The notes: generated by a model not told the origin, from the sequence alone. Positions 18,101 to 26,561 are shown, numbered from the stretch's first letter. The stretch: DNA of 29,592 nt from Candidatus Saccharimonadales bacterium (GCA_036526215.1 DATCYV010000112.1:1-29592), one strand, 5' to 3'. Program-made: numbers and translations.

Positions 18101-18295
18101 TTATGCTTTGCGCTTTTCGCCACCGTACGCGCCACCGCCGTAGCCGAAGGATGATGTTTGGTGAAAAGGATTCTTCTTGCCGAGGAGTTGCAGCAGGGTA
18201 GAGAAGCCCATGATTGTTGCAGCGCCAAAGCCAAGGGTGGCTAAGAACTCTTTGCGGGTCATTTCCTTTTCCATCAGGTTGTTTATTCGCAGCAT
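18101..18295 (-). CDS. Small protein consisting of a Tat-signal-like segment and a YGxGxYG tail
   Basis: MTRKEFL + hydrophobic helix + KK + YGGGAYGG; AAAGGAAG upstream; directly downstream of tatC. Confidence 0.75.
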   Translation of the reverse strand: MLRINNLMEKEMTRKEFLATLGFGAATIMGFSTLLQLLGKKNPFHQTSSFGYGGGAYGGEKRKA

Positions 18296-18369
18296 ATCTC
18301 TTCCTTTATATATGTTTGTATAAGCTTAAGCGTATTGTAGAACGGCAGGCGCACACATGTCAACTGACT

Positions 18370-19461
18370 TTACTTGGAAATTTGTATTTTCCTGGTTGTC
18401 GGAGATACTGGGCGCCCGATTGCGGGTTTGCTGTAGTCGCTGATATAGCGCCTTGGTCGATTTGCCTGCCGTGTGGCATGTTGTGGAATTGATGCAAGCT
18501 GCGGCATCGGAGAAATGCCTGCAGTAACTGGTTCAGACTGGGCGAGAACGGTGGCTTTGGTTTCGTGTATGGCCTGAGACATTGCCGATTCCCAGGTTTG
18601 GCGGGCTCTAGTGAATTCATTAACACGTTTTTCGCGCGTTTCGGCATCTTTTTGGAGAAGGGCAAGTACTTTCTTTGGTCGTCGATGCTTGCGATTTACC
18701 ATCCAAATTAGAACAATGCTTAACTCATACATGGCGATAATGGGCGCGGCCATAATGGTTTGGTTTTTGACGTCTGGTGACGGACTAATCATCGCCCCAA
18801 CGACAAATGCTATAAGTATGACCCAGCGTTGCTTGCCCATGAGCATACCGGGCTTAAGCGGCTTGATATGGTTAATAAAGAGCAGTATTAATGGCAGCTG
18901 AAAGAGTATTGCTGCGCCCAATAAGTAGACGAGTACAAATGAGAGATACGATTGGACAGAAATCAGTGCTTGTATCTGATTGGTAGAAAACGTGTGCAAT
19001 AAGAAATTAAGCCCGGCTGATAGCCCGACAAAGTAACCAAAGCTCATGCCTAGACATGCTAAAACGGCCGACCAAAAACCCACCCAATGCAAAAAATGCA
19101 TGGTTTCTTTTTTGACAAGCGGAGTAAAGTACAGCAGTATTTGGCTGACAATGACTGGAATGCTCAAAAAGAAACCAGTGTACACACAAATGCGTACAAT
19201 AAAGTCAAACCCACCCCCTGGTGATGTGTATATAAACTGTTGGTTTCCGGCAGGCGCAAGAAGCCACTGCGTTAACTGCTTGTGGAACATGCTGGCTAAG
19301 CCGCTAAATACCGCCACAGAAAGCGCAATATAAAATAGCCGCTTCCGCAGTTCATACACATGCTCGATAAAGGGGAGCCGTTGGGGCTCAATCGCTTGCC
19401 TAAGAAGCTGATTCTGAGCGTGTCTTCTCGCCGGTTTGCTTTTGGCTTTTTGCTTGTTCAC
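18370..19461 (-). CDS. tatC: Twin-arginine translocase subunit TatC with long C-terminal extension
   Basis: PFIEHVYELRKRL, multiple TMs, FQLPLIL, ISPSPDVKNQ..MAAPIIAMYELS; GTG start. Confidence 0.92.
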   Translation of the reverse strand: MNKQKAKSKPARRHAQNQLLRQAIEPQRLPFIEHVYELRKRLFYIALSVAVFSGLASMFHKQLTQWLLAPAGNQQFIYTSPGGGFDFIVRICVYTGFFLSIPVIVSQILLYFTPLVKKETMHFLHWVGFWSAVLACLGMSFGYFVGLSAGLNFLLHTFSTNQIQALISVQSYLSFVLVYLLGAAILFQLPLILLFINHIKPLKPGMLMGKQRWVILIAFVVGAMISPSPDVKNQTIMAAPIIAMYELSIVLIWMVNRKHRRPKKVLALLQKDAETREKRVNEFTRARQTWESAMSQAIHETKATVLAQSEPVTAGISPMPQLASIPQHATRQANRPRRYISDYSKPAIGRPVSPTTRKIQISK

Positions 19462-19615
19462 CGTCGCTCAAACCTTTCCGAAGTTCACGTACTTAAGACC
19501 CCGCGCTGCGTGCCAGTTCTGGAAGCTTCTTACCACCGAACAGCAAGAGCACGATCAAGAAGATTAGCAAAAGTTCTGGTGCGCCCAGATCCAGAAAACC
19601 AAACTCGCTAAACAT
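19400..19615 (-). pseudogene. tatA: TatA interrupted by an in-frame TAA at codon 41 (or a sequencing error)
   Basis: Manual translation [70 protein letters not shown]; GAGGG upstream; absent from the ORF track. Confidence 0.85.
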
Positions 19616-19693
19616 GTTACCCTCACTTACTATTAATTATTAGCATTTCCATGATATCATAAGCATGAAGGTTAACGTAAGAAAATTATCAAA

Positions 19694-19972
19694 ATGTATA
19701 TATCATATTTCGCAGAAGCATACGGTACAGGTAATTACGGAAGTGGCAGTTATTCATGTACGACAGCCCAACAGCAGGCTGGTACTTGTGCCACTACGAC
19801 TACAGGTCTAAGTAATACGGGTATTGCAGTGGCGGCTATCGTCACATTGGCGTGCCTTATTATCTTTATTGGCCTTGTGGTGCGTATTTGGCGTCGTAAG
19901 CCGGCGGTTGTCGCCCAAGAGATCGACGACGAAGACGTAGCTCGCATCAGTCGCGGCTCAAGCAACGAATAG
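19694..19972 (+). CDS. Small putative sortase substrate with N-terminal YGxGxYG motif
   Basis: YGTGNYGSGSY, Cys pair, LSNTG + hydrophobic helix + RIWRRK; adjacent to a sortase. Confidence 0.75.
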   Translation: MYISYFAEAYGTGNYGSGSYSCTTAQQQAGTCATTTTGLSNTGIAVAAIVTLACLIIFIGLVVRIWRRKPAVVAQEIDDEDVARISRGSSNE

Positions 19973-19992
19973 GACGGACGAAGGAGCAAACC

Positions 19993-20064
19993 ATGTTACT
20001 GTACGGCAACATGGTTTGCGGCTGTATTCGCATACCAGAGCAGGGCAATACTGGCTATAAGTAG
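19993..20064 (+). CDS. Candidate micro-ORF MLLYGNMVCGCIRIPEQGNTGYK
   Basis: AAGGAG 6 nt upstream of ATG; 23 codons. Confidence 0.25.
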   Translation: MLLYGNMVCGCIRIPEQGNTGYK

Positions 20065-20096
20065 TCCAAGCAAGACCCAAAATTTTATGCGGTCGC

Positions 20097-20681
20097 TCAT
20101 TCAATCTTCTCCAAATTGGCAATAACAACTAAGCGGTTCTTGGGCATCCAGAGAGGTGTGCAAGTATAAATGGTAAGTCGGGCATCGGCCGTTGGGGCTT
20201 CGATGCTCGTTTGGTCTGGGCTAACTTCTTTGATTTCGCCCACTGAGTATACATAATGCTTGTTTTTCCACCATACGCCGATGTGATCGTGTAGCTGTAC
20301 GGCATTAAGGCTGTAGAGTATGCCTTTTGGATTGCTGTATGTAAAACGGTGGCCAACGATTACAGTGTTGCTGCCTTTGTCGGGGGTGCTGCCGTTTGGG
20401 CGTAGCCATAGCCCTTTTTGGAGTGTTTGCGCGGTGCGTCCTTGATTGATGGGCTGATCGAGGCCCATGCTCGGAATAATGAGGCGATCGTCGGCTGGCG
20501 CATTTTGTATTTTGGGAGATGGGGTGTTTATCTTGGTTTCAAGATGCTGTATGTACCGCTTGTCTCGATTATGCAGCAGTAGTGCTATTTGGGGAACTAT
20601 CGGCAGCACAATTACATACCCGTTTATGAGTATGATTGCGGCAAGCAGTCCTGTATTTATACGCGACAACGATAACTTCAC
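20097..20681 (-). CDS. Sortase
   Basis: N-terminal TM, VIVGHRF (His), LTIYTCTP (Cys), RLVV (Arg). Confidence 0.92.
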   Translation of the reverse strand: MKLSLSRINTGLLAAIILINGYVIVLPIVPQIALLLHNRDKRYIQHLETKINTPSPKIQNAPADDRLIIPSMGLDQPINQGRTAQTLQKGLWLRPNGSTPDKGSNTVIVGHRFTYSNPKGILYSLNAVQLHDHIGVWWKNKHYVYSVGEIKEVSPDQTSIEAPTADARLTIYTCTPLWMPKNRLVVIANLEKIE

Positions 20682-20701: not shown

Positions 20702-21214
20702 TTAGGCCTCGGCTTCACCCGTATTGTGGGTAAAGTAGTTGATTTCGTTGACGATGTCGAGTAATGCTTGGGCGCGGACTTTTTCGTCCGGAATTTGCAA
20801 GGCAGCGTCGTAGGCAGTTTTAATGAGGTCGGCATTGTCTGCGGCCTGGATCATCATCATGGTCGTTCGGAACTTTTCTTCTGGCGTTTGATCGAGATGA
20901 CCGACGAGTGGTGAAAGCTGCTGCAGGGCTTGTTGTTTGAGACCGAGCAGTTCGTTGGCATTTGCCACTACATCAGGCAGGGCGGCTGGAGCCGTGTCGT
21001 CGGCGGAGGCCACTGGTGCGGTAGCGGCTGCTGCCGCTGCTGATGGCATAACGCCGCTTGGCGACGTGATACCAGCGGGCATTGGCGAGTCGCTGTCGAT
21101 ATATTCACCTGCGTCATTACCAACGGCCGGTGCGGTAGCAGCTGCGCCAAGGTCTTGGTCGGTTGGCGTTATTGCAGATGCGTTCTGCTGCATTTGATCA
21201 TCGTGCCCAAACAT
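20702..21214 (-). CDS. Hypothetical protein (Ala/Pro-rich N-terminus, helical C-terminal domain)
   Basis: ORF fills the gap; start moved to MFGHD after a GGGGG element. Confidence 0.7.
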   Translation of the reverse strand: MFGHDDQMQQNASAITPTDQDLGAAATAPAVGNDAGEYIDSDSPMPAGITSPSGVMPSAAAAAATAPVASADDTAPAALPDVVANANELLGLKQQALQQLSPLVGHLDQTPEEKFRTTMMMIQAADNADLIKTAYDAALQIPDEKVRAQALLDIVNEINYFTHNTGEAEA

Positions 21215-21291
21215 TATTGTTCCCCCACTTAACGTATCTTTTAGTAGTATACTATATGACACTACCATATTAGCACAAGGAGTATAACTGT

Positions 21292-24959: not shown

Positions 24960-26561
24960 ATGTCACGACTACCAACCCCCGGCCAAGACAACGGCACCTG
25001 GGGCAGTATCCTCAATGACTACCTAGCCCAAGCCCACAACACTGACGGCAGCCTCAAACCCGGCTCAGTCGGTGCTGCCCACATCCAAGACGGTGTCCTG
25101 CCCAAAACTAAGCTCGATACAGCCACCCAGGCTTCACTTACCAAAGCAGACGGATCCCTGCAGGCAGCCAATAACCTGAGTGATGTAGCTACACCAGCTA
25201 CGGCCAGGACAAACCTCGGGCTGGGGACAGCCGCAACAATGACTCCCGCAACCCTTGCGGCAGATACGGCGTTTAGTGGGACGTATGCCACCAAGAAAGC
25301 GGTCGCCCTCGGGCGGATCATGCGCGGTAGGAGCGTCCTCGACGCATACCCGAACGTCATGGCTAGCCCTCCAGCGATCACGTTCTCTGCAACCACGGGG
25401 ATCAGCCCGAACTACGACTACCAGCCCGACGAGTCCAGCCGCCTGACGATCCTCCAGGCCAACACGGCATGGAACGACCCGTCCGGTTTCCAGTACAACA
25501 CCTGGAGCATCTACCAGGAGTGGGGCGTCGAGTTCGACATCAACACCGGGGCTGCGACGGCCGTCGAGGTGAAGTGGCGGTGCTCGTCGAGCAACTCCGA
25601 GAAGTTCTGGGTGTGGCTCGACGGTGCTCCCACAACGGCATGGTTCGTGGCTCCGGGGGCACTGTCAACCACCGCTGGCAGCACGTACTACATGAACATC
25701 CCTGTGAGTGCAGGACAGCGTCGGATCAAGGTGCTGTGGATCAACGCCTCCTTCCGAGGGATCCGGGCGGCGCCGGGATGCTCTGTGCAGAAGACTCCAC
25801 CTCCGCCCTACCGGATCGCCGTCGTCGGGGACTCCTACATCGATGGCGGTTACTTGTCGCTGGCCAACAGCGACTGCATCGGCCCGCACCTGGCCGCCCT
25901 ACTGGGCGGTGATGTCGCTCTGTTCGGAACCGCCGGATCCGGGTACGTTGCAGGTTCCAACACGTTCGGCTCTGCCACTCGCGTTTCGGCCGTTCAGACG
26001 TTCAACCCGGATGCCGTCATCATTTACGGGTCGATCAATGACGATTCCTTGGCTGCATCAGTGCAGGCCGCAGCAACGGCGGCATTTGCCGCCTACCAGG
26101 TCGCCTTACCGAACGTTCCGATCTACGTGATCGGGCCGCAGCAGACCGCGGCAAACACAACGCTGGCCGCGAACCGGGCCGCGAACACCGCCGCCGTCAA
26201 GGCCGCTGCGCTGGCCGCCCCGAACGTGATCGGCTGGGACGACCCCTGCGGCGGGTACCTGGCGTCCACGCCTGCCTACGCTGGCGGCGCCAACTACGCG
26301 GTCGGCGACCTGGTCACCTACCAGGGTGGGGTCTACCAGTGCACGCAGACGGTGAGCAATGCTGGCGGCTCGATGAACCACGGGTCGTTCAACCGCACCT
26401 CATGGCTGTTCGGTACCGGCTACTCGGGGGCAACGGCCGGAGACGGAGATCGTGACATCGCGGTGGGGACCGATCAGATTCACCCTTCGGCGGCAGGATC
26501 GCTGATCCTCGCCCGGAAGATCGCCACGGACTTCCTGACCACGATCCGCGGACTGCTCTAA
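24960..26561 (+). CDS. SGNH/GDSL hydrolase with tail-fibre-like linker and inserted CBM5/12-like module
   Basis: GDSY, GTAGSGY, GSIND and DQIHP SGNH blocks; ANNLSDV..ARTNLGLG; YAVGDLVTYQGGVYQC; AGAAGGAG upstream. Confidence 0.85.
   Translation: MSRLPTPGQDNGTWGSILNDYLAQAHNTDGSLKPGSVGAAHIQDGVLPKTKLDTATQASLTKADGSLQAANNLSDVATPATARTNLGLGTAATMTPATLAADTAFSGTYATKKAVALGRIMRGRSVLDAYPNVMASPPAITFSATTGISPNYDYQPDESSRLTILQANTAWNDPSGFQYNTWSIYQEWGVEFDINTGAATAVEVKWRCSSSNSEKFWVWLDGAPTTAWFVAPGALSTTAGSTYYMNIPVSAGQRRIKVLWINASFRGIRAAPGCSVQKTPPPPYRIAVVGDSYIDGGYLSLANSDCIGPHLAALLGGDVALFGTAGSGYVAGSNTFGSATRVSAVQTFNPDAVIIYGSINDDSLAASVQAAATAAFAAYQVALPNVPIYVIGPQQTAANTTLAANRAANTAAVKAAALAAPNVIGWDDPCGGYLASTPAYAGGANYAVGDLVTYQGGVYQCTQTVSNAGGSMNHGSFNRTSWLFGTGYSGATAGDGDRDIAVGTDQIHPSAAGSLILARKIATDFLTTIRGLL

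Follow-up and report, generated by a model that had tools for sequence, protein, structure and literature searches.

Genomic organization of the locus

The stretch of DNA analysed here, hereafter the window, comprises 29,592 nucleotides of a Candidatus Saccharimonadales bacterium (GCA_036526215.1, DATCYV010000112.1:1-29592) and is part of a 0.78-Mb assembly (G000) of a soil Saccharibacterium, which is 75% complete. Between positions 18101 and 20681 it encodes the twin-arginine translocation (Tat) proteins TatA and TatC, a sortase and two small proteins, S64 and S92, that share a short motif of tyrosine and glycine residues (the YG motif). Genomes acquire and lose this set in step with the RLP family, whose members are signal-less, phage-tailspike-like enzymes, and it is hence probably an undescribed route by which these are exported and become attached to the cell surface.

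Three of the genes are encoded on the minus strand. S64 (64 aa; 18101..18295) is an open reading frame (ORF) with a match to NCBIfam NF038009 below its cut-off, and tatC (363 aa; 18370..19461) was assigned by Pfam TatC (1.6e-46) and TIGR00945 (4.7e-38); its start codon is GTG and it overlaps the 3' end of tatA (19400..19615; Pfam TatA_B_E, 7.7e-13) by approximately 62 nt. The S92 gene (92 aa; 19694..19972, plus strand), defined as an ORF and by alignment, is divergent from tatA across a gap of 78 bp (19616-19693) and convergent with the gene of the sortase (194 aa, with an N-terminal membrane helix; 20097..20681, minus strand; Pfam Sortase PF04203, 2.6e-21). An earlier note on this DNA had described the same layout, with tatA, tatC and a 64-aa ORF on the minus strand, a 92-aa ORF diverging across 78 bp and a convergent sortase gene, and both the ORFs and the Pfam assignments bear it out. 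The gene order GroEL, S64, tatC, tatA, divergent S92, convergent sortase, P188 and PGI is kept through the genus and the family.

In the window, codon 41 of tatA is an in-frame TAA (19493-19495). The same codon reads TCA (Ser), with G for T at 19494, in contigs of three other soil metagenome runs, and all 40 of the relatives examined have Ser at this position (...SAGSSVRELRKG... or similar). An assembly error or a rare variant is the probable source of the TAA. Given the TCA of the three other runs, tatA is most likely intact, with Ser at codon 41 and a predicted product of 71 aa from 71 codons, and we rejected the possibility of a pseudogene. With both genes intact, the TatA and TatC domains make up a Tat translocase. 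Contigs of a root metatranscriptome library match S92 (19594-19960) and part of tatC (18494-18791) with at least 99% identity, which hints that S92 and tatC are expressed, DNA carry-over being possible.

S64, a putative free-standing Tat signal with a YG tail

S64 starts with MTRKEFL, a putative Tat signal of the RK type, followed by a Gly-rich hydrophobic region (h-region) and a tail of approximately 29 residues, in which GYGGGAYGG (residues 51-59) ends five residues before the C-terminus. In an alignment of 34 sequences, Arg14, Phe17, Tyr57 and Gly58 are invariant and Gly51, Tyr52 and Gly53 nearly so, while no AxA cleavage site is conserved in this alignment. The h-region has a hydrophobicity of 1.6 (range 1.6-2.4), versus 3.1 (about 3.0) for the membrane helix of S92. 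The family amounts to 1536 cluster representatives at an E-value of 1e-3 or better. Compared with the pattern S/T-R-R-x-F-L, the window has T-R-K-E-F-L, and among the 150 best representatives 105 have RK and 25 have RR; the strict YG motif is present in 127 of these 150, at a median distance of 4 residues from the C-terminus. In relatives, a signal of the RK type like that of S64 is also found at the start of GH16, VanY and beta-helix enzymes, which speaks for a genuine signal type. Judged from these features, S64 probably represents a Tat signal or anchor of the RK type that stands on its own, with export itself being predicted.

The match of S64 to NF038009 (1.8e-18, 66.5 bits) covers profile positions 6-68 of 70 and stays below the curated cut-off of 100 bits, which was reached in none of 301 genomes of the phylum. 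In a sample of 151 Saccharimonadia genomes (the class sample), TatC is present in 46. Full-length S64 was found in 43 of these 46, and the 105 TatC-negative genomes yielded no full-length copy. S64 is located nearly always within the tatAC operon; in relatives, S64 paralogues are also observed at a distance from tatAC, where an RLP gene comes directly after them.

Signal-less proteins of the RLP family follow S64

Saccharibacteria live on other bacteria and carry many signal-less, phage-tailspike-like proteins. The RLP proteins have no signal peptide, match PHROG tail proteins and start with the signature M-x-RLPxPG..WG..LN, hereafter the RLP handle. Twelve positions of this handle are invariant over 20 aligned sequences, including an Arg at residue 3, which is its only Arg; it lacks a hydrophobic h-region, and a search of PDB sequences with the handle gave no real match. 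The source assembly has 16 RLP ORFs, and the payloads that they carry are pectate-lyase-like beta-helices, NosD-like beta-helices and SGNH esterases. One of the 16, CDS 24960 (24960..26561, plus strand), lies in the window and is a candidate cargo: it has the N-terminus M-S-RLPTPG..WG..LN..L without a signal peptide, an SGNH esterase domain, a CBM5/12 module and a match to a PHROG tail fibre, and the YG motif is absent from its N-terminus. RLP ORFs of this assembly are found on contigs C24, C28, C30, C63, C64, C70, C78, C84, C89 and C105 (loci L118-L127).

The N-terminal module of CDS 24960 had been named in the earlier note as an example of a candidate cargo. In the class sample, the family defined by this signal-less module is present in 43 of the 43 S64-positive genomes, versus 2 of the 108 others, and 44 of the 45 genomes with the RLP handle are TatC-positive. 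The same picture is obtained in a sample of 61 relatives, 37 with S64 and 24 without, where RLP was detected in 37/37 and 1/24 genomes, respectively. Two TatC-positive genomes without S64 (G399 and G430) also miss RLP; the distribution of RLP follows that of S64, not that of TatC, with these two as the only informative genomes. Tallies per family are identical in seven out of seven families with mixed states, and therefore the co-occurrence is not one inherited event. We also identified, in 18 of 82 loci, an RLP gene directly downstream of S64 on the same strand, at a distance of -3 to 378 nt (approximately one such case is expected), and in several of these pairs the stop and start codons overlap.

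Recognition of the RLP handle by TatC itself, as a non-canonical Tat signal, is an explanation that we regard as improbable. S64 would then be a structural TatB-like or a regulatory subunit and no carrier, which fits its nearly constant place in the tatAC operon, and the co-occurrence of RLP with TatC and the invariant Arg at residue 3 of the handle would also be accounted for. Nevertheless, a handle with a single Arg and devoid of a hydrophobic h-region is hardly what this explanation requires, S64 paralogues that are located apart from tatAC directly precede RLP genes, and TatC in G399 and G430, the two informative genomes, comes without RLP when S64 is missing.

S92 and the sortase

S92 is composed of a short N-terminus, the sequence YGTGNYGSGSY (residues 10-20), a Cys-x9-Cys loop, a run of Thr residues, LSNTG, a membrane helix, RIWRRK and an acidic tail. 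Tyr10, Tyr15, Tyr20, Leu39, Thr42 and Gly43 are invariant in the alignment. The C-terminal part has the elements of a sorting signal, namely LSNTG, of which L, T and G are invariant, the helix with its hydrophobicity of 3.1, and RIWRRK; the Pro at position 2 of the sorting motif is missing here and present in deeper lineages. We did not find an N-terminal secretion signal in S92, since just nine residues precede the YG motif and a stop codon is located upstream; the N-tail of 38 aa does not contain Lys or Arg residues. S92 homologues from other families, and from one genome of another class, have a canonical LPxTG and a Sec-type signal that ends in AxA directly before the YG motif, and because of this the FAEA-YG of S92 seems to be a vestigial cleavage site.

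The sortase scores above the cut-off of TIGR01076, and with 54-56 bits for classes E, C and D, versus cut-offs of 160-165, it reaches no class-specific threshold and is, by profile comparison, generic. A sortase is encoded in 149 of the 151 genomes of the class sample, and it adjoins S92 in approximately 17 relatives, mainly in the family of the window. A profile search of the class with S92 was too insensitive, as it mostly matched the sorting signals of large proteins, and scans of gene neighbourhoods were used instead. The earlier note had spoken of a Tat and sortase module. The linkage of the genes extends across the class; the sortase does not belong to the conserved core, because it is nearly universal and adjacent to S92 mainly in this family. 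Elsewhere in the source assembly (contig C41, 8244-8978, plus strand) we noticed a 244-aa ORF that ends with LAATG, a hydrophobic stretch and RRDAN, and that is possibly another substrate for the only sortase that we detected.

No Pfam family was matched by S64, S92 or P188 (188 aa; 20702-21268, minus strand), the last of which has a low-complexity N-terminal half. In relatives, P188 is conserved beside the sortase and PGI genes and is retained even where S92 and the sortase have been lost.

The shared YG motif and its partners

S64 and S92 have in common the motif Y-G-x-x-x-Y-G, which is rare in the genome: among its 6141 ORFs with a length of 40 aa or above, only 10 have it. Both family alignments show the motif to be conserved, and the genes remain linked across the class, so that neither the conservation nor the linkage that the earlier note had made its idea depend on failed. 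Its statement that the two proteins fit the same motif and share nothing else also holds: in a profile-profile comparison of the two families the alignment was confined to the nine residues of the YG motif, with a probability of 6%. Homology of S64 and S92 was rejected on these grounds.

A gene for a YG-tagged partner, with an N-terminal YGxGxYG module, is located at most 600 bp from S64 or tatAC in 52 of 80 S64 loci. Besides S92-like proteins, the partners include pilin-like proteins of approximately 210 aa, membrane-anchored proteins and two sensor histidine kinases. The genes of the latter adjoin tatAC-S64 in two genomes of one family (L096:4814-6709, minus strand, and L101:5514-7619, plus strand), and the extracellular N-terminus of these kinases begins with a YGxGxYG-Cys module.

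We considered whether these proteins may simply be independent parts, S64 being a small Tat substrate or an accessory of TatAC, S92 an ordinary sortase substrate that is placed with its N-terminus outside by YidC or Sec, and the YG motif the mark of a common environment, such as binding to the wall or to glycans. The label of NF038009, "Tat system-associated protein", the near-universal sortase, present with or without Tat, and the lack of homology between the two families beyond nine residues are all consistent with such independence, and the N-tail of the S92 proteins, short (37-55 aa) and almost uncharged, is compatible with signal-independent insertion. We nevertheless consider it quite unlikely, given that S64-like and YG genes are paired in at least seven loci without tatAC nearby and that throughout the class the motif is located at the extreme C-terminus of the S64-like protein and at the mature N-terminus of its partner. 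In addition, one genome (G007) has lost S92 and the sortase together, and the motif of its S64 is degenerate.

Donor-strand pili in relatives

In relatives, we identified operons in which a WxL/Csu-like pilin, a WxLIP-like protein of 305-322 aa, a YG-pilin and an S64-like protein are encoded in this order (L063:1936-5106, L052:5788-8252, L037:4912-8537 and L041:5358-8366). The 305-322-aa protein, a membrane protein, has a long C-terminal helix; in the PDB it is matched best by E. faecium WxLIP (5e-12), and the fimbrial chaperones CfaA and CsuC come next. Models of the YG proteins of approximately 210 aa show a Csu/SCPU/WxL-like beta-sandwich, from which the YG module extends at the N-terminus, disordered and of low confidence. 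Chaperone-pilin operons of the WxL/Elr type are present in relatives, whereas the Elr-type system was reported as confined to Bacillota (bioRxiv 10.64898/2026.10.17.759780). A WxL-type pilin with a DUF916/DUF3324 chaperone had no match in the source assembly, which is 75% complete; a WxL-type pilin is present elsewhere in the genome in five of nine congeners.

These operons suggest that the locus may be a pilus-base module only. In this case, the YG sequence would be a donor strand for WxL/Csu-like pilins, S92 a sortase-anchored terminator and S64 a tethered strand inserted by Tat, acting as primer or terminator, and the RLP proteins would be either tip adhesins or unrelated proteins exported in another way. 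The position of S64 paralogues at the end of operons for pilin-like, chaperone-like and YG-pilin proteins, the fold of the YG-pilin model and the WxLIP match of the chaperone-like protein point in this direction, as does the architecture of S92, which equals that of ElrB (bioRxiv 10.64898/2026.10.17.759780). Yet the module would leave unexplained both the restriction of signal-less RLP proteins to genomes with S64 and Tat and the translational coupling of RLP genes to S64. Moreover, such a pilin or chaperone was not found in the source assembly, and the YG motif departs from the consensus of Elr donor strands, [S/T]-x-[G/A]-x-[V/I]-x-F. We therefore regard the pilus-base module as unlikely, albeit less so than the two explanations considered above.

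Proposed mechanism

With the gene identities, the conservation of the motif, the synteny and the co-occurrence observed as described, our preferred reading, to which we give tentative credence somewhat short of even, is that the locus is the core of a Saccharimonadia-specific surface-display cassette, in which RLP proteins are exported as hitchhikers of S64 and then dock onto a YG anchor. TatA and TatC would export folded proteins, and S64, in which a C-terminal GYGxxxYG strand is the sole other conserved element, would most likely act as a Tat signal in trans that accompanies the RLP proteins, tailspike-like and signal-less, on their way through TatAC. S92 would be a minimal anchor similar to ElrB and CscD that presents its YGxGxYG strand outside the cell, its N-terminus having reached this side through N-tail insertion or co-export; the sortase would cleave LSNTG and join S92 to the wall. 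The strand presented by S64 is also that of S92; the two hence probably compete for one site on the partner, and S92 could take over the load of S64; in relatives, the YG-tagged pilin-like proteins could play the part of S92. We infer the dependence of RLP on Tat, the binding mediated by the YG motif and the hand-off from S64 to S92.

A bolder version of this proposal, which we consider distinctly more doubtful, specifies the contacts. The YG strand of S64 would plug into the RLP handle in the cytoplasm, TatAC would export the complex, the strand of S92 would replace that of S64 by strand exchange, and the sortase would fix the loaded anchor. In relatives, YG-pilins and YG-sensor kinases could stand in for S92, and S92, being signal-less, may itself co-ride out of the cell.

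Several points weigh against hitchhiker export followed by docking. In the window, no RLP gene directly follows S64, and the RLP handle has just approximately 35-45 residues, its role as acceptor of a strand being putative. The deeper S92 homologues use Sec, which means that a YG protein does not need Tat, and a pilin-like acceptor was not found in the source assembly, at its 75% completeness. The counts of co-occurrence among TatC, S64 and RLP take no account of shared ancestry. The sole complex predicted, that of S64 with S92, had a score of 0.01, which is evidence neither way.

If the proposal is true, the Tat pathway would be put to a new use, by a 64-residue carrier that consists only of a signal and serves an entire gene family, and a testable display route for host-recognition or wall-degrading enzymes would be available in an uncultured phylum.

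Comparison with known systems

In our literature search, we found no paper on S64, S92 or RLP. Tat hitchhiker pairs are known, such as HybO/HybC, DmsA/DmsB and Streptomyces MelC1/MelC2. As in these pairs, the signal would be on one partner, and a signal-less folded partner encoded beside it is proposed to ride along. The difference is that S64 has little beyond the signal and a nine-residue motif, and that it would serve a family of 16 copies through a common N-terminal handle, the complex of S64 and RLP being putative. NF038009, named TatB_1, matches S64 over its full length but below the cut-off, and its name gives no mechanism.

Among known proteins, S92 is closest in design to ElrB, an LPxTG protein of small size from the Elr pilus of E. 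faecalis. ElrB is donor strand and anchor at once and serves as the base subunit of a donor-strand-exchange pilus (bioRxiv 10.64898/2026.10.17.759780); a further analogue is CscD of the Lactobacillus csc clusters (PMC1534035). ElrB and CscD share with S92 the small size, a disordered N-terminal strand, a signal of the LPxTG type, the membrane helix, a basic tail and anchoring by sortase, and genes for a WxLIP-like chaperone and WxL/Csu-like pilins are found in relatives. Unlike ElrB and CscD, S92 of this family lacks a signal peptide, carries a YGxGxYG motif instead of the Elr consensus and is encoded beside tatAC, not beside pilins. We also considered the Pam pili and rejected a direct link, the Pam pilins being larger proteins of two domains; a co-located tail-fibre-like gene is noted in the same paper (PMC13278184).

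The RLP payloads would suit the Tat pathway because they are beta-helices and SGNH domains, and a tailspike-like trimer exported by Tat is known: WceF of Pantoea, a beta-helix protein with its own Tat signal (PMC7949094). The Bdellovibrio MAT proteins are a multi-copy family of fibres with variable tips, whose N-terminal domain is invariant and presumably binds to an element of the surface (PMC10769870). RLP proteins resemble WceF in the tailspike-like beta-helix, and MAT in being a multi-copy family with an invariant N-terminal domain. In contrast to WceF and MAT, which have their own signal peptide, RLP proteins are made without one, and their presence is tied to a separate mini-protein.

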